From an uncultured Gammaproteobacteria bacterium (GTDB taxonomy: Bacteria; Patescibacteriota; Patescibacteriia; Magasanikbacterales; UBA922): a stretch of DNA of 64,000 bases. The translations under genes were made by a program, and so were the position numbers. This document shows positions 1,375-63,876 of the stretch, one piece after another; the first letter of the stretch is position 1; every line of letters starts with the position of its first letter. The stretch lies in assembly GCA_964435035.1 (NCBI GenBank), contig CAYSXR010000002.1, forward strand, positions 12,252 to 76,251, read 5' to 3'. Under the pieces are notes generated by a model, which was not told the origin of the DNA, made no database searches, and worked only from the letters and a program-made list of their open reading frames with translations.

Positions 1375-1920
1375 TTATTTTTTCACTTTTGCGAATTCAT
1401 TTTTGATTTTGATATCCGGTAATAGATGGTTCGATTGTTCGGTGTCTTCCGGTCTATAAATTAGAATTCGTATATCTATATGTGATAGAGGTACATTATT
1501 TTCCTCTCCAATTTTTTGTACTTCTCGATCTTGCATTCCTTTCATTTTGTTTGTTTCTTTTTCGGTATAATCAGGAAATCCGAAGGTGAGGGCTCCAAAA
1601 ATAATGACTCCTTTTGGGTTTTCATAGCTCGATTGATCGAGCAAGAGTTCGTCTTTGCTGTATGTGCTGAATTGGTTGAGTCTATCCACTCTCACACTCG
1701 GTATTCCTTGTTCTGTCAGTCGTGCTTTGATTGCACCTGAAAGAGTGGTTTTTCCAACGTTTGTATCGTTGTTTATTGGTCCTGCGATACCGACCACGAC
1801 ATAGTCTTGTGAATTGAGTAGTGTATGGATGCGTTCAAGCGCTTTTTCAACTCCTTCGTTGAATGAGTATTCTTTTTTTTCTTGTGTTACTTCTGGTGAG
1901 TATTCTCCTCGTTCTGGCAT
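1375..1920 (-). CDS. P-loop kinase-like protein (uridine kinase/PRK-like fold), function uncertain
   Basis: VVVGIAGPINNDTNVGKTT P-loop-like segment. Start moved to the internal ATG at 1920 because the longer ORF reads through an intergenic repeat. Confidence 0.4.
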   Translation of the reverse strand: MPERGEYSPEVTQEKKEYSFNEGVEKALERIHTLLNSQDYVVVGIAGPINNDTNVGKTTLSGAIKARLTEQGIPSVRVDRLNQFSTYSKDELLLDQSSYENPKGVIIFGALTFGFPDYTEKETNKMKGMQDREVQKIGEENNVPLSHIDIRILIYRPEDTEQSNHLLPDIKIKNEFAKVKK

Positions 1921-1958
1921 ATTTAAAAAGTTAAAAGTAAAAGCGCAAAAGGTAAAAG
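1921..1958. repeat. GTAAAAG word motif copy
   Basis: AAAAGTTAAAAGTAAAAGCGCAAAAGGTAAAAG. Confidence 0.6.
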
Positions 1959-1967
1959 ATTGAGAAA

Positions 1968-2070
1968 TTAAATCCGTCTCAATTCTGTCCAATTCCGTGT
2001 CATCCGTGTTCCATTGGGCGAATGTCAGAGAATAGAACACTGATGACACGGATTAAACGGATCGTCACGA
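1968..2070. repeat. ACGGAT-word palindromic intergenic element, copy 1
   Basis: Inverted arms AAATCCGT..CGTGTCATCCGTGTTC and GAATAGAACACTGATGACACGGATTAAACGGAT. Confidence 0.8.
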
Positions 2071-14888: not shown

Positions 14889-14893
14889 GAGAA

Positions 14894-25550: not shown

Positions 25551-25590
25551 TTATCTGGTTTACTGGTTATCTAGTTGTACAGTTTGTAAT
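25551..25590. repeat. GTCTGGTT / CTAGTT word repeat copy (variant)
   Basis: TTATCTGGTTTACTGGTTATCTAGTTGTACAGTTTG. Confidence 0.6.
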
Positions 25591-26638: not shown

Positions 26639-26640
26639 AC

Positions 26641-31176: not shown

Positions 31177-31262
31177 TAAGTGATAATCATGTAGGTAGAT
31201 TAGTAGACTCACAAAATGCTTACTCTGCTTATAGCTTATCTTGCTTACTCTGCTTATAGCTT

Positions 31263-32087: not shown

Positions 32088-33167
32088 ATGCAGAAGTTGC
32101 TTATACAATTGGTGACGTGGAATGGAAAAAAGTATATCCCATATCTTTTTGATTCTTTGCGGAAACAAAGTTTTACAGATTTCCATCTATTTATTCTTGA
32201 TAATGGTTCTACTGATGGGACACAAGAGTTAATTGAAAAAGAATTGCAGAATTTTCAGTTTGAATATACATTTGAAAAAAATGGAAAAAATGTTGGTTTT
32301 GCAGGAGGTCATAATCAAATTTATAAACTCAAAAGTCAAAACTCAAAAGTCAAAAGTTTTGATTATATACTTTTGTTGAATCAAGATGTGTATCTTACGT
32401 CAGATTGTATTGAGAGAATGGTTAATTTTTTGAAGAAAAATCCAGACGCTGCGGCAGTAAGCCCCAGACTTATGCGATGGAATTTTGCGGAAGCATCTGA
32501 AGGTATAGAAAAGAGTTTTAGTTTTTTTGTTGATTCACTTGGACTGCGAGTATTTCGAAATCGTCGGGTAATTGAGAAATATGCTGGACAAGTTTGGGAA
32601 GAAAAGAAATCACGGATGGAGTTATCGTTTCGAACCCATGATGATGCGATGGAAGTTTTTGGAGTGTCCGGAGCACTGCCCATGTTTCGGTGGAGTTGTC
32701 TTGAAGTGGTAAGTTTTGATGATCATACTTTTTTTGATACTAGTTATCACTCATACAAAGAGGATGTGGATCTTGCATATCGGCTTCGAATCGCGGGGCT
32801 CCGTTCGTATATACTTCTTGATTCAGTTGCATACCATGATCGAAGTGCGTTCGGCGTTGATCGGGTGGGAGATCGTATTTCTATACAAAATAAGAAAGTA
32901 CAACCTGAATGGATAAAATACCATAGCTATAAAAATCATCTGATGACGTTCTATAAGAATGAGTACTGGCAGAACACCATCCTTGATTTTCCGTGGATTT
33001 TGTGGTATGAGTTAAAGAAGTTTATATATTTTTTCCTATTTGATCGTTCGATTTTGAGGGGGTTAGGTGAAGTGTGGAAGGGGCGCACTGAGCTCCGCAA
33101 GAAAAGGCTTATGGTCAAAAAAATAAGGAAAGCTTCGTGGCAAGATCTGCGTGAGTGGTGGAAATAA
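32088..33167 (+). CDS. Glycosyltransferase family 2
   Basis: ILDNGSTDGT and LLLNQDV motifs. Contains an in-frame AAAGTC/AAAACTC hexamer repeat at 32325-32362. Confidence 0.75.
   Translation: MQKLLIQLVTWNGKKYIPYLFDSLRKQSFTDFHLFILDNGSTDGTQELIEKELQNFQFEYTFEKNGKNVGFAGGHNQIYKLKSQNSKVKSFDYILLLNQDVYLTSDCIERMVNFLKKNPDAAAVSPRLMRWNFAEASEGIEKSFSFFVDSLGLRVFRNRRVIEKYAGQVWEEKKSRMELSFRTHDDAMEVFGVSGALPMFRWSCLEVVSFDDHTFFDTSYHSYKEDVDLAYRLRIAGLRSYILLDSVAYHDRSAFGVDRVGDRISIQNKKVQPEWIKYHSYKNHLMTFYKNEYWQNTILDFPWILWYELKKFIYFFLFDRSILRGLGEVWKGRTELRKKRLMVKKIRKASWQDLREWWK
32325..32362. repeat. AAAAGTC/AAAACTC hexanucleotide repeat inside a GT2 coding region (in frame)
   Basis: CTCAAAAGTCAAAACTCAAAAGTCAAAAGTTTT encodes KLKSQNSKVKSF. 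Confidence 0.7.
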
Positions 33168-39008: not shown

Positions 39009-39104
39009 TGAAATTATTCTAATTAACCTAATTTCTAAAAATGAATTTGAAATTTATTTAGAGTACTTAGGTTAATTAGAATAATTAACAACATAACTTT
39101 TGTT

Positions 39105-40376: not shown

Positions 40377-40730
40377 ATGCTTCATATTATCGGTATCGTT
40401 GTCCAAGGGGAGAAGCGTGGGCGTATTTTGGGTTTTCCTACTGCAAATATTGATATCAAAAAGAAAAAACTATATGTAACTCCTGGAATTTTTGCAGGAT
40501 GGGCAGTGGTTGGAAAAAAGAGGTATAAGGCGGCGGTATTTATTCCTACTACTCTTGATCGAGCTGAGGCTCATTTGCTCGATTATACAGGAAAGGAATT
40601 TTATGGAAAGCATATTGAACTCGAAGTATTGCAAAAGGTGAGCGAAATTGAGCGTTATGATACTACTGATGAATTGATCGAAAAAATTAAGAGTGATGTT
40701 GAGCTCGTAAGAGAAGTGTTGGAAAAGTAA
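40377..40730 (+). CDS. Riboflavin kinase (monofunctional RibF C-terminal-domain homolog)
   Basis: GIVVQGEKRGRILGFPTANI flavokinase motif. Confidence 0.7.
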   Translation: MLHIIGIVVQGEKRGRILGFPTANIDIKKKKLYVTPGIFAGWAVVGKKRYKAAVFIPTTLDRAEAHLLDYTGKEFYGKHIELEVLQKVSEIERYDTTDELIEKIKSDVELVREVLEK

Positions 40731-40760
40731 AAGTGAAAAAGTTAAAAGGTAAAAAAATCC
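40727..40760. repeat. GTAAAAG word motif copy
   Basis: AAGTAAAAGTGAAAAAGTTAAAAGGTAAAAAAATCC. Confidence 0.55.
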
Positions 40761-41637: not shown

Positions 41638-41640
41638 AAT

Positions 41641-41676
41641 GGTTTTCTGGTTGTCTAGATTACTAGTTGTCTGGTC
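41641..41676. repeat. GTCTGGTT / CTAGTT word repeat copy
   Basis: GGTTTTCTGGTTGTCTAGATTACTAGTTGTCTGGT, immediately 5' of the era start. Confidence 0.7.
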
Positions 41677-41736
41677 AGTAAAAAGAATATATCATGTTAT
41701 TGCCTAAATTTCAAGGATGTTGTATCATATTCCCAT

Positions 41737-47013: not shown

Positions 47014-47444
47014 ATAGTCTCTATGGTAATTTTTCTTTCAGTCGTAGTACCTGCAGTAAGTGTAACGACAATCAATTTTTTATTTTCAAGTAACTTCTCT
47101 ACTTTTTCTGGCCACTCTATGATCGTAAGTGTGTCTGGTCTACCTAGATATTCTTCAATTCCTATTTCTATCAGATCTTTGTAGGTTTCAAGTCGGTAGG
47201 TGTCTACATGGACTAATTCTTTGATTGTCTCATGATCCACCGGGTAGACGCTCATGAGTGTGAATGTGGGACTCATCACTTCTTTTTCAATTCCCAATCC
47301 TTCTGCAATTCCTTTGGTAAAGGCAGTTTTGCCTGCACCTAATTCTCCTTTGAGAATAATAATATCTCCGCCCTCAAGCGTGCGAGCAAGCTCTTTGCCA
47401 ATTTCTTTGGTTTCATGTGCTGAGTGGGAGATGTGGGTGGACAT
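47010..47444 (-). CDS. tsaE: tRNA threonylcarbamoyladenosine biosynthesis protein TsaE
   Basis: GDIIILKGELGAGKTAFTKGI P-loop. 144 aa. Confidence 0.85.
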   Translation of the reverse strand: MSTHISHSAHETKEIGKELARTLEGGDIIILKGELGAGKTAFTKGIAEGLGIEKEVMSPTFTLMSVYPVDHETIKELVHVDTYRLETYKDLIEIGIEEYLGRPDTLTIIEWPEKVEKLLENKKLIVVTLTAGTTTERKITIETI

Positions 47445-47451
47445 AGGTTGT

Positions 47452-47545
47452 ATTTATCCGTGTAGATCCGTGTCATCAGTGTTCTATTCTAAAACATTCG
47501 CTAATGGAACACGGATGACACGGATCTAACGGATTGGAACGGATT
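47452..47545. repeat. ACGGAT-word palindromic intergenic element, copy 2
   Basis: GGAACACGGATGACACGGATCTAACGGATTGGAACGGATTT plus an upstream inverted arm. Abuts the tsaE start codon. Confidence 0.85.
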
Positions 47546-47550
47546 TAATT

Positions 47551-48807
47551 CTATTTACTTACAAGTTCAGGATACAACGGAAACTTTTCATTAAGTTTTT
47601 TTACTTCAGCTTTTATTTCGCTGAGCATTACTTCATCATGTGAATTGGTAAGTGCTCTATCAATATATTCTGCAACGAGTTTCATTTCTTCTTCTTTAAA
47701 TCCTCTGGTAGTGAGTGCTGGAGTTCCGAGGCGAATACCGCTTGGATCCATTGCTGAACGGGCATCGTCTGGGATCATATTTTTGTTTACGGTGATTCCA
47801 GCCTTATCAAGTGCTTTTTCTGCTTCAGCACCGCTAATTCCCTTACTAGTTACTGCGTCAATCAAGAGTAGGTGATTGTCAGTTCCTCCAAACATGAGCT
47901 TGTAGTTTCGGTTGTTGAATTCACTTTCTAATACTTTTGCATTCTTTCTGATTTGTTGTGCATATTCTTTGAATGCTGGCTCAAGTGCTTCTTTGAATGC
48001 TACTGCTTTTGCTGCAATATTATTTTCATGCGGACCACCCTGGAATCCGGGGAATACTGATTTATCAATTGCTTTTGCGATTTCTTTTTTGCACATAATC
48101 ATTCCGCCTCGAGGTCCACGAAGTGTTTTGTGTGTGGTTGTTGTTACTACGTCAAATAGGGGAACGGGATTATTCATTTCACCGCCAGCAATGAGTCCTG
48201 CGATGTGTGCAATATCAGCCATCGTGAGTGCCCCTACTTCGTCTGCAATTTTTTTGATTTCAGCGTATTCGATTTCACGTGAGTATGCACTGTAGCCAAC
48301 GAGAATCATTTTTGGTTTGTGTTCCAGTGCCATTGCTCGAAGATTATCAAGGTCTATTTTTCCTTCGGCATTAGTTTTATATCTAATAAAATTGAATACT
48401 TTCGTCATGTGTGTGACGGGGTGTCCATGTGTTAGGTGTCCGCCATGTGATAAGTCCATACCAAGAATCGTATCTCCTGGATTGAGTAAACCAAAATACA
48501 CAGCAATATTTGCAGGTGCTCCGGATAATGGTTGTACATTCACATGTTCGGCACCAAATAATTGTTTGGCACGATCGATTGCAAGTGTTTCAATTTCATC
48601 AATAAATTCACAACCGCCGTAATATCGCTTTCCTGGGTATCCTTCGGAATATTTATTAGTAGCGATTGATCCGAGTGCTTCAAGTACAGGGAGTGATACA
48701 AAGTTTTCAGAAGGGATCATTTCAAGTCCGGTCTCTTGCCTGTTTCGTTCACGCTCGAGTGCTGCAAATAGGGAAGGGTCGAAATCTTTAATTTTTTGTT
48801 TGTTCAT
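47551..48807 (-). CDS. glyA: Serine hydroxymethyltransferase
   Basis: SHMT signature TTTTHKTLRGPRGGMI with the PLP lysine. Confidence 0.95.
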   Translation of the reverse strand: MNKQKIKDFDPSLFAALERERNRQETGLEMIPSENFVSLPVLEALGSIATNKYSEGYPGKRYYGGCEFIDEIETLAIDRAKQLFGAEHVNVQPLSGAPANIAVYFGLLNPGDTILGMDLSHGGHLTHGHPVTHMTKVFNFIRYKTNAEGKIDLDNLRAMALEHKPKMILVGYSAYSREIEYAEIKKIADEVGALTMADIAHIAGLIAGGEMNNPVPLFDVVTTTTHKTLRGPRGGMIMCKKEIAKAIDKSVFPGFQGGPHENNIAAKAVAFKEALEPAFKEYAQQIRKNAKVLESEFNNRNYKLMFGGTDNHLLLIDAVTSKGISGAEAEKALDKAGITVNKNMIPDDARSAMDPSGIRLGTPALTTRGFKEEEMKLVAEYIDRALTNSHDEVMLSEIKAEVKKLNEKFPLYPELVSK

Positions 48808-48883
48808 AAAATAGTTAGTCGTAACTGATGAGTAAGAAAGAAAATTTAACCTAAATTACAACATACTAATTTAATGTATTAAT

Positions 48884-49285
48884 TTATTTGTATTCTTTGA
48901 TAACTTCAATTACATTTGGGGCACAATCTTCAGGGAGATTATTAATATCAAACCATTCCCATTCTACAATATTAGACCCAGGTTTTATTTCTCCAATTCG
49001 TTTTGCAAGATAGTGAATAAGAATCACTAATTTTTCTGGTTGGTCTGGACGAAATACGAGCATTGGTTTGAGGGGTTGTATAATTTCAACTTCAATTCCC
49101 ATTTCTTCCATCACTTCACGCTTACATGCGTCTTCGAGTGAAATGTCAAAAGACTCGACTTCTCCTCCAGGAAAAAGCCAGGGAGTAATCCGTCCATCAT
49201 CTTTTTGTTCTTTATTTAGCAACACCTTACCATCTTCGATAATGACAGGTCCTGAGGCAATGATTGTTTGGGCGGGGAGATTCAT
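48884..49285 (-). CDS. Nudix hydrolase
   Basis: Nudix box GGEVESFDISLEDACKREVMEEMG. Confidence 0.75.
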   Translation of the reverse strand: MNLPAQTIIASGPVIIEDGKVLLNKEQKDDGRITPWLFPGGEVESFDISLEDACKREVMEEMGIEVEIIQPLKPMLVFRPDQPEKLVILIHYLAKRIGEIKPGSNIVEWEWFDINNLPEDCAPNVIEVIKEYK

Positions 49286-49697
49286 ATGCAGGTATTGTAG
49301 CTAAGATGGCGAAATATCACAAGCTGGTTTTGGTTGACTTTCGGTGGGATGTATTGTATGCTTTTCTGCGGATTTTGCCCGAAGTACGGGTCCGTCACCC
49401 AAGTACTGTGGAGGTTAGTTCATGTTCACTCTGGTGTGCGTCATGGGACTCTGGACCCAGATCGTGTGTGTCCCGGACAAGGGAAGGAAGATTACTCGAG
49501 TTCGGAATCGCAAACATGGCTGGCACGTCGGAGGGGCGGGACAGCTTCCGATGGGTCATCGGCGGAAATTCAGGAAGCCGCGTTGAGTGACTGGGAGTGG
49601 TAGATCTGGGAACAGATCTTAGCTCAGGAGCGCTTTCCTGGATTCATCATGTCGTCGACGGGACTGTGCATCGCACGGTCCCGTCAGTTCTCTTACC

Positions 49698-49728
49698 TAT
49701 TTATTCGAGCCCTATCGGGCTTTTATTA
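49698..49728 (+). terminator. Intrinsic terminator ending a high-GC plus-strand transcript within island D
   Basis: GAGCCCTATCGGGCTTTTATTATTTT. Confidence 0.6.
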
Positions 49729-49833
49729 TTTTACCAAATAAAGTATTGACTTTATGATAATGTTTATATATCCTATTGCGGTGCTTAGCTCGACCTCGGT
49801 CGAGTTGTGCCGTCAACCAGAGGAAACATCATC

Positions 49834-50040
49834 ATGTCAGATTCAGAAAGAAATGATCAGCCGCGCCTTCGGAGTCGCCGTCGAGTCCATACTGCCGGAG
49901 CTTTCGATCACATTCAACGTGTGCTCGTCGACGAAGAGCAGAATATGCCACCCTATCGGAACGTAGGGCATCAGCAGCCCGGAGTGCGTCTCAGTGATGC
50001 ATGCATCATTCCCAACCAGCGGCCGGACTACAAGTCCTGA
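49834..50040 (+). CDS. Hypothetical small protein (68 aa) in high-GC island D
   Basis: RBS AGAGGAAA 7 nt upstream of the ATG. Arg-rich N-terminus. A bidirectional terminator lies at 50108-50134. Confidence 0.3.
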   Translation: MSDSERNDQPRLRSRRRVHTAGAFDHIQRVLVDEEQNMPPYRNVGHQQPGVRLSDACIIPNQRPDYKS

Positions 50041-50107
50041 TCCGTGATCCTCTTGCCCGGAGACTGCTCGCTCAATGCGAGTAGTCTTCCTGGCCCCTTC
50101 GTCAAAT

Positions 50108-50134
50108 TAAAAGAAGCTCCTAATAGGAGCTTCT
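50108..50134. terminator. Bidirectional terminator between island D and elp3
   Basis: AAAAGAAGCTCCTAATAGGAGCTTCTT. Confidence 0.6.
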
Positions 50135-51807
50135 TATGTTATTTCTTTAATCATGTACGTTCCTTCTTTTTTGTAGCCAAGCTTTTCATAATATCCCCGT
50201 ACACCTACTCCGGAAATTACGGCAAGTTTTTTTACGTTATTTTTTTTGGTAATGCGTTCAGCCTCGGCCATTAATTTTTTTCCATATCCTTTGTGCTGAC
50301 TACCGATTGTTTTTGTCTTTCCAATTCCAATCATTTGTCCGTATACATGGAGTTCACGGATGAATGCGCTTCCTTTGATTTCGGGCATGAGGGTGTGCAG
50401 GGTTTCTAGTTGTCTGGTTTTCTGGTTGTCTGGTTCGTGAGGAATGCGGAGACGAAGAAAACCGTAGACTGCGATACGATTTTTATCTTCCATTGAAATA
50501 AAGTATTCGGTCCCTCCAATAGTTTCGTAGGTGTCTACGAAAACGTGTGGTTCAGCGTCTGGATCTATCTTGTCTTTTTGGCGATAAATCTCTCGGCAAC
50601 GCAAACACTCGCAATGTTTTCCTTCTTTTTTGAGTTGGTACTCGAGCATTTCACGGAGGTTGGTGATGATATTTCCATTTTCAATTTCTGTTGCAGGAAT
50701 ATCTCGAATAAGTCGGGAAATACGGCAATAGCGTGGAGTTGCAAGTTTCATTTCGAGTAATGCCCGGAACAATCCTTCATCTCCATATGATTTGTAACGA
50801 CCATCTAAGAACCATTGGTATAATTCTGCTGATTTAATTACGGTGTTTGGATAAATCTTAATCATGTCTGGACGAAGTCCTAAATCTGAAAAGATTTCTT
50901 TATACATTTCAATATCATGTTCAGGTGTGGTTCCAGGTAAATCTGGCATGAAGTGTAAATCCACTTTGAATCCCGCTTCGCGAAGCAAATAAATTGCGTC
51001 ACGGAATTGTTGTACCGTATGTCCTCGATTGATCAGCTTTAAAATAGTATCATCAGTTGCTTGAAGTCCGAGTTCAATTCGCGTACAACCTTGTAAACGC
51101 ATGTGATGAATAGATTTCGGTGAAATTGCATCGGGTCTGGTTTCAAGGGTCAAGCCAATAATACGATGTCCGGTTGATTCATTGATGGTTTGTTCCATAT
51201 CTAATGCAGCTTGTAGGTCAGCAATAGATTTGTCATTCCAATATTCTTCAGGTGTGGGACCTATAGGTACTTCTCGATTGAAGTCATTGCAAGCTTTAAA
51301 GGATTCGAGAATAAACCAATATTGGTATTTGAGAGGGTAGGCATTCCAGGTTCCACCTTTTAATATGTATTCAATTTTGTCTGTTGGGTGTCCGTTCAAT
51401 TCAAGCATTTCAAGACGTTTTTTCATTTGCTCGTACGGACTAAAATCAAGTCTGAGAGCTCGTGCTGCTGCTGGTTCGGTGGCAATATAGCTTTTTGGCA
51501 TTCTAAGTTCGGTAGGGCAGTAAATGCATTTACCGGGGCAGGTATAGGGTTTTACCAGAGAGGTAATTATTACTACTCCAGAGAGTGTTCGCACATTTGC
51601 TTTGCGTAGGAAAAATTCCATCTGTTCGTCGGGTAGAATACTTTTCTTTTCAATAAGACTCTGGTAGGCTATGAGCAGTGCCTGATTTGCAGGCTGTCGA
51701 ATATTTAGCTTCGAAGCACCACGACGTTTTGCATCGTCAAAATCGTCCTTGGTTAGAGGCTTGTCGTCGACAATATATTTCATTAGTTTTTCAGCGATTT
51801 CGTTCAT
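50134..51807 (-). CDS. elp3: Elp3-family radical-SAM/GNAT protein (tRNA uridine-34 modification acetyltransferase homolog)
   Basis: Radical SAM core (CPGKCIYCP) and C-terminal GNAT domain (HKGYGKKLMAEAERI). 557 aa. Confidence 0.85.
   Translation of the reverse strand: MNEIAEKLMKYIVDDKPLTKDDFDDAKRRGASKLNIRQPANQALLIAYQSLIEKKSILPDEQMEFFLRKANVRTLSGVVIITSLVKPYTCPGKCIYCPTELRMPKSYIATEPAAARALRLDFSPYEQMKKRLEMLELNGHPTDKIEYILKGGTWNAYPLKYQYWFILESFKACNDFNREVPIGPTPEEYWNDKSIADLQAALDMEQTINESTGHRIIGLTLETRPDAISPKSIHHMRLQGCTRIELGLQATDDTILKLINRGHTVQQFRDAIYLLREAGFKVDLHFMPDLPGTTPEHDIEMYKEIFSDLGLRPDMIKIYPNTVIKSAELYQWFLDGRYKSYGDEGLFRALLEMKLATPRYCRISRLIRDIPATEIENGNIITNLREMLEYQLKKEGKHCECLRCREIYRQKDKIDPDAEPHVFVDTYETIGGTEYFISMEDKNRIAVYGFLRLRIPHEPDNQKTRQLETLHTLMPEIKGSAFIRELHVYGQMIGIGKTKTIGSQHKGYGKKLMAEAERITKKNNVKKLAVISGVGVRGYYEKLGYKKEGTYMIKEIT
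50401..50437. repeat. GTCTGGTT / CTAGTT word repeat copy embedded in-frame in the elp3 coding region
   Basis: GGTTTCTAGTTGTCTGGTTTTCTGGTTGTCTGGTT encodes the HEPDNQKTRQLET insert on the minus strand. Confidence 0.7.
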
Positions 51808-51811
51808 GCTA

Positions 51812-51915
51812 TCTTTATAGAATAGAACACGGATGACACGGATCTAACGGATTAGAACGGATTTGTATTTATCCGTGTCTATCCATTTAATCCGTTAAAT
51901 CAGTGTTCCATTTAT
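51812..51915. repeat. ACGGAT-word palindromic intergenic element, copy 3
   Basis: TAGAATAGAACACGGATGACACGGATCTAACGGATTAGAACGGATTT plus inverted arm. Lies between divergent elp3 and the MTase-Nudix gene. Confidence 0.85.
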
Positions 51916-51921
51916 CAAATT

Positions 51922-53061
51922 ATGCAAAATAACAATTTCATTTCCCAAAATAAAGACGTCTATAATACTATTGCTTCGTATTTTTCTAGTACCCGTCAAT
52001 TTGTCTGGGAAGATTTAAAGGATTTTTCCCAGTATATCACGAAGGAAGACACGGTTCTTGATATTGGCTGTGGGAACGGTAGAGTATATCAATTATGCGA
52101 GAATTTGCAAGTAGCTTACACTGGAATTGATCAGAGTGAAGAGCTCATCGCGATTGCTAAAAATAAGTATCCGACAGTTCATTTTGATGTAGGGGAGATG
52201 ACTGAGCTTCCATACGAGGATGCCTCTTTTTCTATAATTATTTGTGTTGCAACTTTTAATCATTTACCTGATCGTGATTCACGATTGAAATCACTTGGTG
52301 AGATGAAGCGGGTACTCAAACCTGGTGGAATAATTCTCATGACGAATTGGAATGTATTATCAGATAATGCACAGAAGTACATTGATCGTGAAAAATGGAA
52401 AATTGTAGATAATAATAGACAAGATGTATTAGTGCCATGGATGACGCCGGTTGGTGAAAAAATGCCGGGTGATCGGTATTATCATGGGTATGAGTTATCG
52501 GAATTATTTGAATTATTTACGGATATTGGGTTTATTGTCGAGCAACAATATTATGCAAAAAAAGGGAAGCGAAGTAATAAACATCAAGGGCATAATATGG
52601 TAAGTATCGTACGGAATAAGTGGACCGGTGTGCCTTCTGCTGGGGGAGTGGTAGTGCGAAAAGAGGGTGATAAATATGTAGTGGCACTTGAACGCGATAC
52701 TGCATTGGAAAAATCCGACTACTGGTTTATTCCCAAGGGGCACCTGGATTCAGGAGAAACATTGGAAGAAGCTGCACGAAGAGAAATTAGTGAGGAAGTT
52801 GGAATTTTAGAATTGGAATATGAATGTTTTCTGATGAAAAGTGAACGAAAGTCGTTTGTCGGGGATGAGTGGAAGAATATGTATTATTTTTTGTATATCA
52901 CAAAACAAATTGAATTAAAACCAAAGCTATTGTCAGGAGAGAGACATCATGAAGCTAAATGGGTAGATTTGTTTCAAAAGGAACCTATATCTTCGTTTGA
53001 GGAGCAAGAAAACGTTTTTAAATTGGTACGGACTTATATTGACGCGCGTAAGATTTCTTGA
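51922..53061 (+). CDS. Fusion protein: class I SAM methyltransferase (N-terminal) plus Nudix hydrolase (C-terminal)
   Basis: VLDIGCGNGRV and VLKPGGIIL MTase motifs, then Nudix box GHLDSGETLEEAARREISEEVG. Confidence 0.7.
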   Translation: MQNNNFISQNKDVYNTIASYFSSTRQFVWEDLKDFSQYITKEDTVLDIGCGNGRVYQLCENLQVAYTGIDQSEELIAIAKNKYPTVHFDVGEMTELPYEDASFSIIICVATFNHLPDRDSRLKSLGEMKRVLKPGGIILMTNWNVLSDNAQKYIDREKWKIVDNNRQDVLVPWMTPVGEKMPGDRYYHGYELSELFELFTDIGFIVEQQYYAKKGKRSNKHQGHNMVSIVRNKWTGVPSAGGVVVRKEGDKYVVALERDTALEKSDYWFIPKGHLDSGETLEEAARREISEEVGILELEYECFLMKSERKSFVGDEWKNMYYFLYITKQIELKPKLLSGERHHEAKWVDLFQKEPISSFEEQENVFKLVRTYIDARKIS

Positions 53062-54502: not shown

Positions 54503-54664
54503 ATGAGACTTATCTGTCCAGAATGTAAAAATGAAGTCGATATTTCAACATTCCCTAATCTTGCTATTGATCAGGTACTTGAGTGTGATACCTGTGGAAT
54601 TACACTTGTGGTGATTGATGTGGGCGACGAAGTATTTGCCGAAATTGTTGATGAGGGGAAATAA
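54503..54664 (+). CDS. LysW-like zinc-ribbon micro-protein (53 aa)
   Basis: MRLICPECKNEVDISTFPNLAIDQVLECDTCGITLVVIDVGDEVFAEIVDEGK: CPxC...CDTCG pattern and acidic tail. Not in the supplied ORF track because it is under 60 aa. Confidence 0.4.
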   Translation: MRLICPECKNEVDISTFPNLAIDQVLECDTCGITLVVIDVGDEVFAEIVDEGK

Positions 54665-54679
54665 ATTAGTTATTGCATT

Positions 54680-55035
54680 ACGTCATCCCCGCGAAAGCGG
54701 GGATCTTGTGTAATAGGAGGGGTATGGAATATTTTTTTGTGTATATTTTAGCTAGTAAAAAGTGCGGTGTTTTGTATATTGGAGTTACGAATGATCTAAC
54801 GCGTAGGGTTCAGGAATATAAAGCAGGAATTATTGAGGGGTTTACAAAAAAGTATTTTGTACACAAACTAGTATATTTTGAAACGTATACTTTTATTTTA
54901 GAAGCGATTAAACGAGAAAAGCAGCTTAAGAAATGGAATAGAGAGTGGAAGATAGGCTTAATAGAAAAGCAAAATCCAAATTGGTTAGACTTAGCTTCAG
55001 AGGAAAAAAGATCCCCGCTTTCGCGGGGATGACGT
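54680..55035 (+). mobile_element. GIY-YIG nuclease gene bounded by perfect 28-bp terminal inverted repeats (candidate miniature mobile cassette)
   Basis: TIR-L at 54680-54707 is ACGTCATCCCCGCGAAAGCGGGGATCTT. TIR-R at 55008-55035 is its exact reverse complement. Each TIR is itself a hairpin. Confidence 0.5.
54724..55032 (+). CDS. GIY-YIG nuclease superfamily protein
   Basis: YFFVYILASKKCGVLYIGVTNDLTRRVQEH-like GIY-YIG motif. RBS TAGGAGGGG. C-terminal codons overlap the right TIR. Confidence 0.7.
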   Translation: MEYFFVYILASKKCGVLYIGVTNDLTRRVQEYKAGIIEGFTKKYFVHKLVYFETYTFILEAIKREKQLKKWNREWKIGLIEKQNPNWLDLASEEKRSPLSRG

Positions 55036-55078
55036 CTTAAATGTAGTAATTTGCTAAGCGTTAGTCGGAATGACGCTG

Positions 55079-55628: not shown

Positions 55629-57005
55629 TTATTTTTTTATTCTCTCCACCAGTTCTTCTATCATACCACGAAATCCGTGGCTTCCGAGAAATGCAATCGT
55701 GTCTCCTTTTTTTGCCATTTCAGAAAGTTTTGTAATCAAATTACCATCATTATCGAGATATTCAACATTGCGATGGGTTTCCCCAATTACATTTACAAGC
55801 TCTGCTCCATCGAGTGGGGTTTCTGAGTTTTTATCTGTTTTGATTACGGTAAGTCGGGGGATAATCACTATATCTGCATCTTTGAACGCATGATCGTATC
55901 CTTTTGCAGCACTTGGCTGTCGGTTTCCCGTGTTTGGTTCGAATAGTGCAATTACTTTACCTTTCGTTATTTTTCGAACGGTAGAAAGTGCTGAACTTGC
56001 TTTTGCAGGGGAGTGAGCAATATCATCAATGATAGTAATATCTCCTTTCAGTCTTTTTTCCATGCGACGCTTGAGTCCTTGGTGATTGGCTATACTTTTG
56101 ATAATTGAGTTTACTTCGACTCCAATTGTGTGTGCGAGTGCAAAACAGCCAGTAATATTTTCCGCTTGATACTCACTGAGAAATGGAGATTGAATATTGA
56201 ATACTGAATGTTGATTTTTTATTTTGAATGTCATGCCTGTTGTTGAAGTTTTTACCTCAAAAAATTGGTAGTCATTATGCTCGCTTAGTCCATAACTCAC
56301 GGTTTTGCATAATGCGTGTTTTGCATAGTCGTGCGCACGTTCAGAAATTACTAAGAGACCGTTTGCTGGCAGTGACAAAATTAATGTTTCAAAAGTTTCA
56401 AAATATTTTTGTTCAGTTGGGTAGATATCAGCATGATCCCATTCAACTGCGGTTAATAATAAATGTGTTGGATCATAGTGTGCGAATTTGGGGCTATTGT
56501 CCCATCGTGCAGTTTTGTATTCATCACCTTCGAGTACATTCCATATACCACTTCCAATTACGGCTGAAGGTATCTCATCAATACTTAATCCTCCAAACAT
56601 GTAGCTTGGATCATAGTTTGCATCAGTAAGAATCTGCGATAGGAGTGCTGCTGAACTCGTTTTGCCGTATGTGCCAGCACAGACAATAGAGTTTTCTTTG
56701 AGAAAAAACTTTTTGATTAATTCTGGATAGGAGACGTAAGGTATTTTATTCTCTTGTACAAAAATCCATTCTGGATTAGTAGAGGCTGCAACATTTCCTA
56801 CGACCACGAGATCAGGATTTCCATTTGAGCACATTTTGGTAGGATGCCATCCTGGATAGTAGGGGACGTCATTATTTTTTAGATATGTTGAAATAGGAGG
56901 AAAGAATCCTTTGTCACTACCTGTCACGTTGTGCCCAGCTTTTTTGAGCGCGAGTGCGAGACCTCCCATGGCTACGCCGCAAATTCCGATAAAGTGGATT
57001 TTCAT
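55629..57005 (-). CDS. Mur ligase family protein, Mpl/MurC-like
   Basis: N-terminus IHFIGICGVAMGGLALALKKAGHNVTGSD..FFPPIS is close to Mpl. Mur ligase middle domain (GTYGKTS) and C-terminal domain. Confidence 0.8.
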   Translation of the reverse strand: MKIHFIGICGVAMGGLALALKKAGHNVTGSDKGFFPPISTYLKNNDVPYYPGWHPTKMCSNGNPDLVVVGNVAASTNPEWIFVQENKIPYVSYPELIKKFFLKENSIVCAGTYGKTSSAALLSQILTDANYDPSYMFGGLSIDEIPSAVIGSGIWNVLEGDEYKTARWDNSPKFAHYDPTHLLLTAVEWDHADIYPTEQKYFETFETLILSLPANGLLVISERAHDYAKHALCKTVSYGLSEHNDYQFFEVKTSTTGMTFKIKNQHSVFNIQSPFLSEYQAENITGCFALAHTIGVEVNSIIKSIANHQGLKRRMEKRLKGDITIIDDIAHSPAKASSALSTVRKITKGKVIALFEPNTGNRQPSAAKGYDHAFKDADIVIIPRLTVIKTDKNSETPLDGAELVNVIGETHRNVEYLDNDGNLITKLSEMAKKGDTIAFLGSHGFRGMIEELVERIKK

Positions 57006-57709
57006 ACGCTTAAAATTTTCTTTAACTCATCAACATTAGTATTCCATTTCTCCCCATCAAACCATTCAGCTCCGGAAAATTGGAATTTGTAGGTATCAGT
57101 AGGACGTTGTGCTGAGCCTAGGTACACATATTTTTTTCCAGTATCTTTCGCCCATACAATTGCCTTCGTCATCATACCGATACCGATATTGGTAAATTGA
57201 CTTACGTTTGTAAGTTCGTAGAATGGGTATGAGTAATGCAGAATGTCTTTATTGGTATAACAAATTGCGTAGCCGAGTGTTGATACTTCACTCTGATTGG
57301 TTGTAACGACCCTCTCTAACTCCCCCTTGTAGGGGGAGGAATATTCGAGAAGCAGATTAAAGTTGCGATTATCCGCGTCGGTCAGCAATTCTTTTACTTT
57401 GTTTGCGCTAAAGGTGCCGTCACCAAATTTGGTGGTATAAAAATCTTTGGCAAGTTTGCCAATTGACCAGTGGTAGTCGGAATAGGGAAGGGGAATGGTA
57501 ACCAGTGTGATTTCATCTGTCTTTTTGAGCACACGTCGATTTTCGCTTGATAATTCAAATTTTGATAAATCAATTCGTACACTGCGTGTCTGATCCATCT
57601 CACCTTTGCCTCTGCGTGTAAAAACAAAACCATCAGCGTACATTTTACTGATGTTCTCTGAGGAAAAATCGGTGATTGTTTGTTTTTTCCAGCTTAAGTA
57701 GTTTGACAT
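57002..57709 (-). CDS. Arginyl/leucyl-tRNA-protein transferase (Ate/Bpt) family protein
   Basis: ATE_N-like GFVFTRRG, then ATE_C-like SENRRVLKK...EYS...YVYLGS...KFQF..EW. Start moved to the ATG at 57709 because the longer ORF reads through an intergenic repeat. Confidence 0.6.
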   Translation of the reverse strand: MSNYLSWKKQTITDFSSENISKMYADGFVFTRRGKGEMDQTRSVRIDLSKFELSSENRRVLKKTDEITLVTIPLPYSDYHWSIGKLAKDFYTTKFGDGTFSANKVKELLTDADNRNFNLLLEYSSPYKGELERVVTTNQSEVSTLGYAICYTNKDILHYSYPFYELTNVSQFTNIGIGMMTKAIVWAKDTGKKYVYLGSAQRPTDTYKFQFSGAEWFDGEKWNTNVDELKKILSV

Positions 57710-57775
57710 AGAATAGAACACGGATGACACGGATTTAACGGATTGGGACGGATTATATTTATTATTGATCTTGTT
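57710..57775. repeat. ACGGAT-word element, copy 4 (single arm)
   Basis: TAGAATAGAACACGGATGACACGGATTTAACGGATTGGGACGGATT, abutting the start codon at 57709. Confidence 0.8.
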
Positions 57776-57795
57776 ATGTTTACCCAATCAGTATG

Positions 57796-58197
57796 CTATT
57801 TAATTTTTGTTTTTTGAGTGTGAAATCTTTTTTCCATCCATCGGTAGATTCCAATAAATGCGCCCGTGCTTAGTATTGTAAAGAATGCCACCACTATATT
57901 GAATTCTGAGAAAAAAGCAGCAACGATTCCTCCAATCATGAGAATGTAGCTCCATGTTTTCATCTGCATTGCAGCAAAAAACATATTTGCGGCAGGGTCG
58001 GAGAGATGCCAGTATCGGTCGACGAGGAGGATGCTAACTCCAAAAATGAATATCCACATTGGTACTAGCATCGCACCGAGTGTTTCTTCGGGTATCGATG
58101 AACCGAATACTGCAAATGCGATGATTGCCCATACAAATGAAATGCCGAATGCGATTGCGCCTGCATAAAGCGCCTTTAGTCTAAACCAGATTAACAT
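57796..58197 (-). CDS. Small polytopic membrane protein
   Basis: Four predicted TM helices. Confidence 0.45.
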   Translation of the reverse strand: MLIWFRLKALYAGAIAFGISFVWAIIAFAVFGSSIPEETLGAMLVPMWIFIFGVSILLVDRYWHLSDPAANMFFAAMQMKTWSYILMIGGIVAAFFSEFNIVVAFFTILSTGAFIGIYRWMEKRFHTQKTKIK

Positions 58198-61135: not shown

Positions 61136-61139
61136 AATT

Positions 61140-61248
61140 GCATTAATCCGTGTAAACCCGTGTTATCCGTTAAATCCGCGTTCTATTAAGTGAATGTTAT
61201 AGAATAGCACACGGATGACACGGATTTAACGGATTGGGACGGATTTTT
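61140..61248. repeat. ACGGAT-word palindromic intergenic element, copy 5
   Basis: Both arms present. Abuts the NlpC/P60-like start (61135) and the ATP-grasp stop (61247). Confidence 0.85.
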
Positions 61249-62467
61249 ATATTGAAATAATATCCTTAATCTCTATTCCGACATCGGTAAACTCCCTATC
61301 AGTTTCAATAATGCTTGTGTCTGATTGTATTCGTAATAGATCGCTATTGTGTTCAGTGTTATTATATGGAATCACTTTGAAATTTTTCTCTGTTAGTTTT
61401 TTTGACGCTTCTTCAAGTTGTGTAACGGATGTTATCTTTTTTGTTACTCGTTGAATAATCTGTGCTCCGTTAGAAATTTTTACGAGAGTCACTTCGTCCA
61501 ATGGTTCACCAAGTAGTGCATTCACATGTGCTTCAAGAACGGTGAGCGTACTTTCGTCTTTTTTAATCTTATTCTGTAGTTCGCTTTCGTGCGAAGTACT
61601 TGCTGGCTGACGTGCATTGATTTCTATCAGATACCATCGGCTTTCTTTGGTACTCCAGATTGCGTCGATTCCAAATAATCCGACCCAACCAAGGTTACGA
61701 AGTGTATTAGCCACCTCTCGTGCTATGAGATCATACGAAGTGCGTTCTGATTCATTTAATATGCGATAGGGAGCTCCCCAGTCATTTCCAATAGTAGCAA
61801 ATGCACTGTCAGTGAATGGTTTTATTCCCGTAATCTGATAGCTGATATTTCCAGTGAGTGTGGTGTCTTGTGCAACTACAATATTACTTGTAAACACCGG
61901 TCCTTCAATAAGTGGTGCAATTCGTGATTCACGTTTTGGAAATTGATTTTTTAGTTCATCTAATTTTTCTGCTGCATCAATAATCATTGTTCCACTTCCC
62001 GTGTGAGAATGATTAAATTGAAGTACAAAAGGTGTGTCTAGCCATTGAATTTCTTCAATTCTTTTTTTCTCATATCGGGGCATGAGTTCGCTTAATTTTT
62101 CAAGTGTGGTGAGCTGTGTAATTTTTTCTTCAAGCGAAGCTGCTAATTTTGATGCAGGATTTAGAAGCGTATATTCCATTTTTTTACACCATTTTTCTAT
62201 GAGCGATGTATTTTTGAATACAAGGATTTTTGGTGAGTCAAATGTGCTCAAAAGCTTTTCGGTTTCTTCATGAGCTAGTAGCTCGTGAGTATCAAGTGTA
62301 TTCGGGCTATCTATAAGGTGTATGCGGTCAGGGTATGCATTCTGAACTGACTTGGCAAACGGTGTTTCATTTGAGATAATGAAAATAGACGGAATGGTAA
62401 GGCATCCGATAGCGCGTTCGATGTCACGAGTGATATAGATGATTGTATTTTTGCCAACTTTTTTCAT
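61247..62467 (-). CDS. ATP-grasp domain protein (peptide/D-Ala-D-Ala-ligase-like)
   Basis: C-terminal ATP-grasp signature GLFGIDAIWSTKESRWYLIEINARQ. Unknown 190-aa N-terminal domain. Confidence 0.6.
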   Translation of the reverse strand: MKKVGKNTIIYITRDIERAIGCLTIPSIFIISNETPFAKSVQNAYPDRIHLIDSPNTLDTHELLAHEETEKLLSTFDSPKILVFKNTSLIEKWCKKMEYTLLNPASKLAASLEEKITQLTTLEKLSELMPRYEKKRIEEIQWLDTPFVLQFNHSHTGSGTMIIDAAEKLDELKNQFPKRESRIAPLIEGPVFTSNIVVAQDTTLTGNISYQITGIKPFTDSAFATIGNDWGAPYRILNESERTSYDLIAREVANTLRNLGWVGLFGIDAIWSTKESRWYLIEINARQPASTSHESELQNKIKKDESTLTVLEAHVNALLGEPLDEVTLVKISNGAQIIQRVTKKITSVTQLEEASKKLTEKNFKVIPYNNTEHNSDLLRIQSDTSIIETDREFTDVGIEIKDIISI

Positions 62468-63499: not shown

Positions 63500-63847
63500 A
63501 TGAACATTTCAATTCATGCTAATAGTACTGAGCTTACTGATGCGCTTCGTGAATATGCTGAAAAGAAAATGGAAGGTTTGGTAAAATATTTTGATGGTAT
63601 TACTCGGGTGGTTGTAGATATTGGACTTATTTCGACTCATCATCAAAAAGGTAAAATATTTTTTGCCGAGGCAAATGTACATCTTCCTCAGGGTAAAATG
63701 ATTCGCGTGAGAAAAGAAGCTGAAGATTTGTATAAAGCGATTGATAAAGTGAAAGATCATTTGAAAGTAGAACTTGATGAATTCAAGAGTAAGTTGCGAT
63801 CAAAAGATCGTGAAGTACTTCGGGATGTCAAAGGGTATCAGGAGTAG
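63500..63847 (+). CDS. hpf: Ribosome hibernation promoting factor (HPF/RaiA short form)
   Basis: MNISIHANSTELTDALREYAEKK is the typical sigma-54-modulation-protein N-terminus. Confidence 0.85.
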   Translation: MNISIHANSTELTDALREYAEKKMEGLVKYFDGITRVVVDIGLISTHHQKGKIFFAEANVHLPQGKMIRVRKEAEDLYKAIDKVKDHLKVELDEFKSKLRSKDREVLRDVKGYQE

Positions 63848-63849
63848 GT

Positions 63850-63876
63850 TTTTTTGGTTGTCTAGTTGTCTGGTTA
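63850..63876. repeat. GTCTGGTT / CTAGTT word repeat copy after hpf
   Basis: TTGGTTGTCTAGTTGTCTGGTT. Confidence 0.7.

Follow-up and report, generated by a model that had tools for sequence, protein, structure and literature searches.

Short inverted repeats that are dispersed through bacterial genomes have been described in several forms. In REPINs, which belong to the REP-RAYT system (Bertels and Rainey 2011, PMC3116915), and in the BIMEs of E. coli, inverted short units form a hairpin of about 100 nt, and the copies are dispersed, intergenic, numerous and non-coding. The cognate gene of the REP-RAYT system is itself flanked by the repeat, and BIME units also occur singly or in mosaics with characteristic linkers. 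MITEs such as Correia/NEMIS, ERIC and RUP are likewise small and non-coding, occur in many copies and end in inverted repeats (PMC10969869). They are presence/absence polymorphic between strains, lie beside or inside transcription units, and derive from a gene-carrying element by internal deletion. Each of these traits has a counterpart in the hairpin elements described here, which were studied in a 64-kb stretch of DNA (64,000 nucleotides, hereafter the window); the derivation by internal deletion is suggested by a deletion intermediate from another genome, locus L150. The TAACTGA repeats of Beggiatoaceae, Cyanobacteria and Bacteroidetes (PMC4679880) and the cyanobacterial STRR heptamers are also similar, as intergenic words of 7–10 nt stand in tandem, often a few nucleotides from a start codon, with a patchy distribution that suggests horizontal spread. 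TAACTGA arrays consist of direct repeats, with one indirect among 169 sets, have no known associated gene, and have been proposed to play a post-transcriptional regulatory role (PMC4679880). Their words differ from the ACGGAT words of the present elements.

Further differences concern REP sequences and MITEs. A REP unit is a small palindrome, whereas the unit here is an array of direct 9–10-nt words. The REP-RAYT system has an IS200-like tyrosine (HUH) transposase, whereas a GxxExxY protein of about 125 aa with a PD-(D/E)XK fold is encoded between the arms here. The REPIN-RAYT association is described as lineage-specific and mostly vertically inherited, in contrast to the sequence studied here, which is common to genomes labelled with many phyla. 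As for MITEs, no target-site duplication could be defined at the window copies, and no DDE transposase is recognised in the parent element, whose only gene is GxxExxY/PF13366. The inverted repeats are, moreover, long and internally periodic, and the insertion sites consist of a few bases between genes. The window copies are probably non-autonomous, selfish, ORF-less insertions of the MITE/REPIN type, which come from a cross-phylum hairpin family and have no regulatory role in the host. Their classification as ORF-less derivatives of this type relies on their insertion polymorphism, on the wide occurrence of the arm, and on the existence of a gene-carrying full-length form. No description of the family was found in the searchable literature, and no paper was found that contains 16–17-mers of the arm as text strings.

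Five elements built from ACGGAT words and two diverged relatives occupy entire intergenic gaps of the window (Table 1). The elements are 88–111 bp long and contain no ORF.

Table 1 Coordinates and architecture of the five copies and two diverged relatives in the window
Element	Position	Architecture or setting	First arm	Linker or loop	Second arm	Words
Copy A	1970-2074	head-to-head	left, 1970-2015	GGGCGAATGTCAGAG, 2016-2030	right, 2031-2074	
Copy B	47448-47549	head-to-head	left, 47448-47488	CTAAAACATTCGCT, 47489-47502	right, 47503-47549	
Copy C	51812-51915	canonical form	right-type, 51821-51864	TTGTATTT, 51863-51870	left-type, 51871-51912	
Copy D	57710-57798		intact, 57710-57757		decayed partner, ~57762-57798	
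Copy E	61138-61248	head-to-head	left, 61138-61187	AAGTGAATGTTATAG, 61188-61202	right, 61203-61248	
Diverged relative 1	14324-14417	palindromic				GCAGAT, ATGGAT, ACAGAT, ATGAT, ATCCGT
Diverged relative 2	26638-26732	gap from NUDIX gene stop codon to sugar dehydratase ATG (26733)				

The arm of about 42 nt reads AATAGAAC-ACGGAT-GAC-ACGGAT-yTA-ACGGAT-TrGr-ACGGAT-TT. It is an array of three to four RCRGAT words at a spacing of 9–10 nt (9, 9 and 10 nt in the window core), and two inverted arms make up the palindrome. ACGGAT occurs 45 times in the window, compared to 26.9 ± 4.8 expected, and arrays of at least three phased CNGAT words were counted seven times (0.05 in shuffles). A recurring core of helically phased words had been described in the first-pass annotation. 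Its recurrence was borne out by matches to a 38-mer at 47509, 51827, 57718 and 61209 with 0–3 mismatches (0.00 expected) and by a fifth, more diverged copy (copy A), and the spacing of 9–10 nt shows that the phasing is real. Two architectures occur. In copies C and D, the arms stand tail to tail, and the GAAC ends of copy C form the hairpin base; in copies A, B and E, they stand head to head and are joined by a conserved linker of 14–15 nt. The asymmetry of this linker shows that copy B has the opposite orientation to A and E. Three of the five copies do not have the canonical gene-carrying architecture, being head to head, which counts against the reading as selfish elements. The outer end of the window arms, (A)ATAGAAC, fits arms that flank GxxExxY genes in other genomes, e.g., aatagaacacggatgacacggatgttacggattttcacggatt in L248. 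The TAGAAT box noted earlier in each copy belongs to this outer end; as a -10 box, it lies on the wrong strand for the adjacent minus-strand genes. The first diverged relative was placed in the superfamily because its word type and architecture match the arms around GxxExxY genes.

The copies fit closely between their neighbours. Copy B fills the 106-nt gap from the SHMT stop codon (47551) to the TsaE start codon (47444), and copy E the gap from the stop codon of an ATP-grasp gene (61247–61249) to the start codon of a 256-aa gene (61135). The 114-nt gap occupied by copy C separates the divergent starts of Elp3 (51807) and of a methyltransferase-NUDIX gene (51922). The window Elp3 has matches named Candidatus Magasanikbacteria at about 65% identity, which, together with the compactness of the genome, is the basis for its probable placement in CPR/Patescibacteria. 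The intact arm of copy D directly abuts the start codon at 57709, and the ATAG end of its decayed arm provides the TAG stop (57796–57798) of the upstream gene. The right arm of copy A includes the stop codon (2065–2067) of a small GIY-YIG gene (2065–2310, minus strand), and the first diverged relative stops 2 nt short of the ATG of a DUF192 gene (14418). Since the copies abut the neighbouring stop codon, or the divergent start, as tightly as the start codon, they are considered to occupy the whole gap. The claim that every copy lies within a few base pairs of a start codon was accurate for most copies but not for copy A, where the start codon is 48 nt away, and stop codons or a divergent start are equally close. 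Two ORFs (1375..2049 and 57002..57787) were indeed over-extended through the element, as had been suspected, with real starts at 1920 and 57709.

A comparison of orthologous intergenic regions, as proposed in the first-pass annotation, revealed presence/absence polymorphism among relatives. Each of the four tested junctions (B, C, D and E) is 4–26 nt wide and empty in at least one syntenic relative, with gap lengths that depend on ORF-based approximations of gene calls. At site C, where the window has 114 nt, L244 has 5 nt and both L246 and L247 have 4 nt; all three relatives lack an element there. At site D, 87 nt of the window correspond to 8 nt in L246 (TAAtcacatctATG). Site E spans 111 nt in the window but 6 nt in L244; a different hairpin is found there in L246 and an 18-nt remnant in L247. 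At site B, the 106 nt of the window compare with 15 nt in L244 and with 26 nt in L247, and L246 has a diverged copy at the same position. The two copies at site B have diverged in their words (ACGGAT to ACGGGT) and through an indel of 14 nt in the linker, and the shared copy has decayed at about the rate of neutral DNA. Over a 21-kb syntenic stretch, four elements were counted in the window, one in L246, and none in L244, L245 and L247. The four filled/empty comparisons revealed no consistent direct repeat, a palindromic TA duplication being indistinguishable from an extension of the inverted repeat (ATAGAAC...GTTCTAT). Judged from these alignments, the copies are insertions and not conserved regulatory sites.

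These results bear directly on the idea of a shared cis-regulatory module, i.e., an iteron-like or response-regulator array, for a regulon of minus-strand genes. Such a module would account for words phased at 9–10 bp near start codons. It is nonetheless highly improbable, as the elements are missing from the same junctions in relatives and the genes on either side have no function in common (TsaE/SHMT, Elp3/methyltransferase-NUDIX, hypothetical proteins, ATP-grasp, GIY-YIG). The inversion of copy B, the strand of TAGAAT, the near-neutral decay of the copy at site B and the presence of the same sequence in genomes labelled with many phyla also argue against it. A promoter role was rejected, since promoter-like sites in the window are at chance level (43 found, 41.8 expected) and none is correctly oriented at the copies. 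The other reading of the first-pass annotation, REP- or MITE-like elements, agrees with multi-copy, hairpin-forming, non-coding sequences that are polymorphic in presence among close relatives.

RNA folding yielded hairpins in copies A, B, C and E, with minimum free energies of -39 to -47 kcal/mol and z of -6.3 to -8.5. The values are -46.9 kcal/mol (z -6.3) for copy A as gene-sense RNA, -43.1 (z -8.5) for copy B, -42.7 (z -8.3) for copy C and -39.3 (z -6.5) for copy E, in which word helices of 6–8 bp lie between 3x3 internal loops. No significant hairpin was obtained for the region of copy D (z 0.35), so that the hairpins predicted earlier exist in four copies and not in the single-arm one. 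The first and second diverged relatives fold at -25.4 kcal/mol (z -5.1) and -29.6 kcal/mol (z -6.1). In copy E and several hairpins elsewhere, the words base-pair while the spacers are not complementary. The conserved feature is the words rather than the pairing.

Hairpins of this stability might have been co-opted in RNA as RNase III processing sites, stabilisers or translation modulators, which would explain their position at start and stop codons. The copies do lie in probable operons, directly between stop and start codons, and their gene-sense hairpins are very stable. There are precedents: Correia/NEMIS is cleaved by RNase III and ERIC affects mRNA decay (PMC10969869), and TAACTGA repeats lie just upstream of start codons (PMC4679880). 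The evidence from the window and its relatives nevertheless makes co-option improbable. Folding does not favour the gene-sense over the antisense strand: among the window copies, sense is better in three, equal in one and worse in one, and the trend in seven co-directional hairpins elsewhere is in the wrong direction (p = 0.16). Relatives function with junctions of 4–15 nt without a hairpin, and the copy at shared site B decays. A search of the whole window against Rfam gave no match at gathering thresholds, and a permissive search of 47300–52100 gave only generic hairpin matches far below threshold. Intrinsic terminators were also rejected, as none was called at any copy and the gene-sense 3' flanks have no U-run; terminator-like sites in the window are at chance level.

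The arm is widespread in other bacteria. An exact 19-mer within it, GAACACGGATGACACGGAT, was found at 120 loci or more with a locus GC of 0.31–0.70. The genomes are labelled Bacteroidota, Planctomycetota, Acidobacteriota, Chloroflexota, Desulfobacterota, Nitrospirota, Methylococcaceae, Leptospirales, Armatimonadota and others. Past the selected 19-mer, the consensus continues as TTTAACGGATTTTCACGGATTT, and a 40-nt consensus is common to genomes labelled with many phyla. Word spacing across these loci is 9 nt in 71 cases, 10 nt in 71 and 11 nt in 12. The same arm sequence adjoins unrelated genes elsewhere. Of 120 arm bases from other phyla, 25 are no more than 20 nt away from an ORF boundary, a raw count from which no positional preference is claimed. 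Because the source genome was assembled from a metagenome, an artefact of assembly or chimerism was considered, but the chance of this is negligible. Copy C was reproduced by three independent Logan assemblies, one of which also contains copy B (99.985–100% identity), and related copies are present in hundreds of unrelated public contigs. Many of the matches are in IMG/VR contigs, which may point to phage vectors.

In other genomes, a full-length form carries a gene of about 125 aa in the hairpin loop, which encodes a GxxExxY protein (PF13366, PD-(D/E)XK fold). The gene (TIGR04256, E 1e-38; PF13366) lies between ACGGAT arms in L126, L225, L157 and L208. The association is also seen from the side of the protein. 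When GxxExxY loci were chosen by protein similarity alone, inverted RCRGAT arrays flanked 49 of 76, well above shuffles, and at least three phased CNGAT words in canonical orientation were present at 40 of 72 loci, compared to nine in the opposite-orientation control. In L150, the 75-nt loop of an ACGGAT hairpin consists of the 3' remnant of a GxxExxY gene, and the locus is a deletion intermediate. In L208, a gene remnant is likewise attached to the arms. GxxExxY/PF13366 is listed as of unknown function, with clades of mixed phyla (PMC3424549), and the literature on GxxExxY, PF13366 and TIGR04256 yielded incidental mentions only. The family is very large, with at least 8000 candidates, and its fold match to nucleases is weak (best Foldseek E ~4e-3).

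The hairpin could also be the primary entity, either REP-like and mobile or host-derived, with GxxExxY genes as secondary invaders that home into its loops. ORF-less hairpins far outnumber gene-carrying ones, as five among the roughly 120 loci listed carry the gene. The hairpin expanded in the lineage of the window with no visible GxxExxY gene in either the window or the 21-kb stretches compared in the relatives. Around the GxxExxY gene of L226, the arrays consist of another word, GCAAAGG. Similarity between GxxExxY proteins is not correlated with the word variant that dominates at their loci (permutation p = 0.6), which gives no support for specific co-evolution of protein and word. The missing gene and the missing correlation, like the lack of a definable target-site duplication, also weigh against the main reading. 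An origin by secondary invasion seems rather unlikely all the same. The position of 49 of 76 genes between RCRGAT arrays would be unexpected unless the hairpin itself were the exact target of the invader, and the gene remnants on the arms of L150 and L208 are what internal deletion predicts. No other candidate mobilising gene was seen between the arms. In the window, the scan of about 59 proteins found no transposase (including Y1_Tnp) and no integrase.

The ends of several known transposons contain multiple subterminal binding sites, namely the TnsB sites of Tn7, the ends of Mu, the AAACGG hexamers of Ac/Ds and the 12-mers of En/Spm. As in the present arms, several short words are direct within an end and inverted between ends. 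These transposons span kilobases and have dedicated transposases, whereas the arm here is about 42 nt long and the sole gene encodes a minimal nuclease-fold protein whose binding is putative. It is by analogy with the Tn7, Mu and Ac/Ds ends that recognition of several words is proposed, and the word phasing suits repeated recognition sites of a transposon-like end better than host operators. The words would then be putative binding targets of a trans-acting protein. The most likely candidate is the GxxExxY nuclease-fold protein, which would act at the GAAC ends, possibly on an extruded hairpin or cruciform. Insertion, or survival afterwards, would favour the few nucleotides that separate adjacent genes. 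Once inserted, a copy would be passive, be transcribed within its operon as a long hairpin, and decay through point mutation and the loss of whole words. More tentatively, the hairpins could be the non-autonomous form of an undescribed pan-bacterial class of mobile elements, in which GxxExxY serves as a word-recognising transposase or homing nuclease, inserts precisely at gene junctions and moves between phyla, including reduced CPR genomes.

Other known classes were compared with the elements and rejected. The ends GTTCTAT/ATAGAAC do not fit the GTTRRRY of integron attC sites, the flanks are housekeeping genes in conserved synteny, and the window has no integrase. A CRISPR reading was ruled out by sequence and context. 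Intervening sequences of 23S rRNA are hairpin-flanked ORFs, and Rickettsia palindromic elements (RPEs) are tolerated even inside genes. Both are at most a lead for comparison, as they resemble the present elements in their long stem, optional small loop ORF and tolerance in transcribed regions. RPEs insert in frame into proteins, a property that the elements here do not share, and none of the loci examined is in or close to an rRNA gene: a link with 23S rRNA intervening sequences was dismissed, as rRNA probes gave no match in the vicinity of 327 loci.

GxxExxY/PF13366 may thus gain a role as the gene of a specific mobile hairpin element, and the elements would define a class of intergenic repeats common to several phyla. 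Even this very compact, probably CPR, genome has recently accumulated them, at junctions of 4–15 nt. If the preference for junctions reflects targeting rather than selection, the element would insert without harming tightly packed genes, which would be a new mechanism. The 19-mer of the arm could serve as a tracer of horizontal exchange among environmental bacteria. Repeats of this kind also mislead gene calling, as the over-extended ORFs of the window illustrate. Several further word-array families are also present in the window.

The window has a GC content of 38-42% and a compact set of housekeeping genes, including MraZ/MraW, Mur ligases, DnaB, RecR, UvrC, SHMT, TsaE, Elp3 and many glycosyltransferases; no tRNA genes were found in it. 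Those Elp3 homologues that carry a name (about 65% identity) belong to Candidatus Magasanikbacteria, and the source is probably an uncultured CPR/Patescibacteria genome. Among the approximately 59 window proteins scanned, no transposase or integrase was present, and the only selfish-looking genes were two small GIY-YIG ORFs. The recurrent core noted in the first-pass annotation occurs far above chance. A 38-mer is found with 0-3 mismatches at 47509, 51827, 57718 and 61209 (0.00 expected), together with a more diverged fifth copy (copy A in the table). ACGGAT itself occurs 45 times (26.9 ± 4.8 expected), and seven phased arrays with three or more CNGAT words at 8-11 nt were counted vs 0.05 in shuffles. 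The supposed helical phasing was borne out, the word starts being 9, 9 and 10 nt apart, and the two ORFs suspected of over-extension through the element are indeed too long, their conserved N-termini starting at 1920 and 57709. Copy C was recovered in three independent Logan assemblies, and copy B in one of these, at 99.985-100% identity, which rules out an assembly artefact as the source of the elements.

The arm unit of about 42 nt reads AATAGAAC-ACGGAT-GAC-ACGGAT-yTA-ACGGAT-TrGr-ACGGAT-TT. In copies C and D, the GAAC ends form the base of the hairpin and an 8-nt loop lies at the GGATTT ends; the partner arm of D has decayed. In copies A, B and E, the GAAC ends face each other over a conserved 14-15-nt linker (rrGyGAATGTyAkAG). 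This linker is asymmetric and shows copy B to be inverted relative to A and E; hence, the copies do not all have the same orientation. The proposed pairing of the arms applies to four copies (A, B, C and E), which fold into long hairpins on the gene-sense strand (z -6.3 to -8.5), but not to the single-arm copy D. In several hairpins, copy E included, the words pair while the spacers are non-complementary, leaving 6-8-bp helices split by 3x3 internal loops, so the conserved feature is the word array and not perfect pairing. Co-option of the hairpins at the RNA level is possible but unsupported, as no sense-strand folding advantage was seen in the tests.

Every copy fills the whole intergenic gap. 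The described proximity to start codons is real for the downstream gene, but the upstream stop codon (or divergent start) is abutted just as tightly. A stop codon lies inside the arm in D, in E and for the small GIY-YIG gene that abuts copy A (2065-2310, 81 aa); this gene and copy A are together bracketed by direct AAAAGT/AAAACTT word arrays (1926-1958, 2323-2347). The TAGAAT box is present, but as part of the outer end and linker, reading opposite to the strand of the adjacent genes. Between 46.5 and 62.5 kb, promoter-like (43 vs 41.8) and terminator-like (15 vs 12.7) consensus sites stayed at chance level.

ACGGAT elements of the window, their folding on the gene-sense strand and the length of the same junctions in syntenic relatives (L244, L246, L247)
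Element	Position	Junction	Window gap (nt)	Relatives	MFE (kcal/mol)	z
Copy A	1970-2074				-46.9	-6.3
Copy B	47448-47549	SHMT stop to TsaE start	106	L244 15 nt; L247 26 nt; L246 diverged ACGGAT copy with identical end sequences, without the 14-nt linker, words decayed	-43.1	-8.5
Copy C	51812-51915	divergent starts, methyltransferase-NUDIX / Elp3	114	L244 5 nt; L246 4 nt; L247 4 nt	-42.7	-8.3
Copy D (single arm)	57710-57798	upstream gene stop to next start	87	L246 8 nt	-9.2	0.35
Copy E	61138-61248	ATP-grasp stop to next start	111	L244 6 nt; L246 82 nt, unrelated hairpin; L247 35 nt including 18-nt remnant (ATCCGGGTTAACGCGGAT)	-39.3	-6.5
Diverged related palindrome (GCAGAT, ATGGAT, ACAGAT, ATCCGT)	14324-14417	ends 0-2 nt before start codon
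Diverged related palindrome (GCAGAT, ATGGAT, ACAGAT, ATCCGT)	26638-26732	ends 0-2 nt before start codon

Gene order is kept in three relatives, whose Elp3 is 92% (L244 and L245, one relative), 89% (L246) and 85% (L247) identical to that of the window. Comparison of the orthologous junctions revealed insertion polymorphism at sites B, C, D and E, named after their copies. Over the 21-kb syntenic stretch, the window carries four ACGGAT elements, L246 one, and L244 + L245 and L247 none. The ACGGAT elements are insertions. A shared cis-regulatory module serving a regulon had also been suggested. The presence/absence pattern and the decay of the copy shared at site B argue against a conserved regulatory function, and the genes flanking the seven elements have no functional relation; the regulon reading is essentially refuted. 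By ORF-based gene calls, only three gaps in L244 are 20 nt or shorter; together they make up 25 of the roughly 3644 intergenic nt and coincide exactly with sites B, C and E. With insertion taken as uniform per intergenic base across the ORF-based gaps of L244, the probability that at least three of four insertions fall into them is about 1e-6 by our own arithmetic. Tight gene junctions are either targeted by insertion or the sole survivable sites. No target-site duplication was definable at the filled and empty sites. Another small nuclease gene (DUF559/Vsr-like) is polymorphic at a gene junction, being present between the PALP and methyltransferase-NUDIX genes in L246 (8479-8847) and L247 (8476-8862) and absent from the window and L244.

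The arm family is not genome-specific and crosses phyla. The exact 19-mer GAACACGGATGACACGGAT, beyond which the consensus runs on as TTTAACGGATTTTCACGGATTT, was found at no fewer than 120 loci in a species-representative genome set. Among the matches listed, MAG labels include Saprospiraceae, Chitinophagales, Flavobacteriaceae, Anaerolineae, Leptospirales, Desulfobacterales, Melioribacteraceae, Armatimonadota, Fimbriiglobus/Planctomyces/Pirellulaceae, Methylobacter/Methylococcaceae, Nitrospirae, Kiritimatiellae, Acidobacteriota, Gemmatimonadota and others, with a locus GC content of 0.31-0.70. Four phased words are present in 62 of 133 arms, at spacings of 9 nt (71), 10 nt (71) and 11 nt (12), and for roughly half of the arms, a closing inverted partner lies no more than 150 nt away. 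At least 120 IMG/VR contigs match the loose pattern ACGGAT-N3-ACGGAT-N3-ACGGAT; the common form among the matches listed is a T-run, (G/A)A(A/C)C and then 3-4 words, often beside other word arrays. These matches hint at carriage by phages or prophages, or at host DNA inside viral contigs. At one locus (L209, ~900-2050), the arms of an ACGGAT hairpin are separated by about 1.1 kb of low-complexity sequence of extreme G/C composition, probably a MAG assembly artefact.

Some hairpins carry a gene. The loops of L126 (525 nt) and L225 (492 nt), two public loci with ACGGAT arms, encode GxxExxY proteins matching TIGR04256 (E 1e-38 to 1e-39) and PF13366 PDDEXK_3. An iterative protein search found five GxxExxY genes in all fetched loci; ACGGAT arms flank four (L126, L157, L208, L225), and inverted arrays of a different word, GCAAAGG/CCTTTGC, flank the fifth. 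In an independent set of 80 metagenome loci chosen by protein similarity alone, 49 of the 76 adequately flanked loci had a flanking inverted repeat (at least 10 score units above 20 shuffles). The arms there consist of (A)ATAGAAC and then RCRGAT words, most commonly ACGGAT, ACAGAT, GCGGAT and GCAGAT. Three or more phased CNGAT words in canonical orientation occurred on at least one flank of 40/72 loci and on both flanks of 20/72, compared with 9/72 and 1/72 in the opposite-orientation control. In L150 (4640-4812), the 75-nt loop of an ACGGAT hairpin is the 3' remnant of a GxxExxY gene (IGLLLNFGKKPQFKRKLCTNDKKKI*), and this locus is a deletion intermediate. L208 (500-1800) holds four tandem units, each with the 3' end of a GxxExxY gene and an ACGGAT hairpin; these two structures suggest repeated insertion or deletion beside resident copies. 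Given the arm-flanked genes, L150 and L208, the best reading is that hairpins lacking an ORF arose from GxxExxY-carrying elements by internal deletion. The main rival explanation takes the hairpin as primary and has GxxExxY invade it secondarily.

The GxxExxY family is very large (at least 8000 candidates, mostly named just "GxxExxY protein"). A survey of PD-(D/E)XK proteins lists PF13366 as of unknown function and describes repeated transfers and mixed clades (PMC3424549). Sequence search found no PDB relative; an AlphaFold2 model (pLDDT 85.6) gave weak PD-(D/E)XK matches in Foldseek (best E ~4e-3), namely Cas4 SSO0001, a lambda-exonuclease-like enzyme, 3ijm and tRNA-splicing endonucleases. 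A nuclease fold is plausible. The words in both ends would be recognition sites for a protein supplied in trans; GxxExxY is the most likely candidate, and its action would take place at the GAAC ends and might involve an extruded hairpin or cruciform. The element would insert into, or survive in, the few bases between genes, where its ATAG end may sometimes supply the neighbour's stop codon, and it would then remain as a passive transcribed hairpin, eroding with time. The tests showed neither co-variation of the word variant with the GxxExxY protein nor a link to rRNA intervening sequences.

The ends of Tn7, Mu and Ac/Ds carry multiple subterminal binding sites, which the word-array ends recall. 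Closest in working are the REPINs/BIMEs, which resemble the elements in their inverted doublets, singletons and mosaics and in having the repeat on both sides of a cognate gene (PMC3116915). The elements nevertheless fail the defining REPIN test because no RAYT turned up between the arms or among the window proteins scanned, and because the repeat is not specific to one lineage. A second close analogue are MITEs such as Correia, which are short TIR elements located in transcription units (PMC10969869); for the elements described here, no target-site duplication was definable and no recognised transposase was found. TAACTGA repeats share the start-codon adjacency and patchy distribution (PMC4679880). 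The searchable literature yielded no description of ACGGAT arms or of a link between them and GxxExxY genes, and the parent that carries the gene has a substantial chance of being a mobile element of a new class.

The intergenic regions of the window also hold several other palindromic word arrays, with periods of 7-8 nt. CTGGTT/CTAGTT words with an 8-nt period occur at 896-941, 14893-14997, 25548-25585, 41640-41677 and 63839-63876; the array at 14893-14997 is a palindrome with the architecture of the ACGGAT elements, a different word and no known cargo gene. AAAACTCA/AAAGTCAA words (7-8 nt) occur at 283-318, 9933-10065, 17048-17125, 32310-32358 and 40723-40758, with palindromes at 9959-10065 and 17051-17129. 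Three more intergenic repeats (7452-7536, 31217-31264, 39012-39086) end at or near start codons; they are, in this order, an AAGATT/AATCTT word palindrome, a perfect 25-nt tandem duplication that runs into the ATG at 31263, and a palindrome with 37-nt arms. Within Elp3, residues ~457-470 (EPDNQKTRQLETLH; 50399-50436, minus strand) substitute the relatives' SDGIPDSSPVVALK or SENLANSANLENLK at equal length. This stretch is encoded by a near-perfect array of 8-nt words from the intergenic GGTTGTCT/AGTTTTCT family, placed in frame within a variable loop of this housekeeping gene. Furthermore, the other small GIY-YIG gene (54724-55032, Pfam E 5e-13) sits between 45-nt inverted repeats (54663-55052), each containing the mini-hairpin CCCCGCGAAAGCGGGG. 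It looks like a second, parallel family of hairpin shells with a small nuclease gene, and an ORF-less version of its arms occupies site E in L246 (710-791), where the window has copy E.
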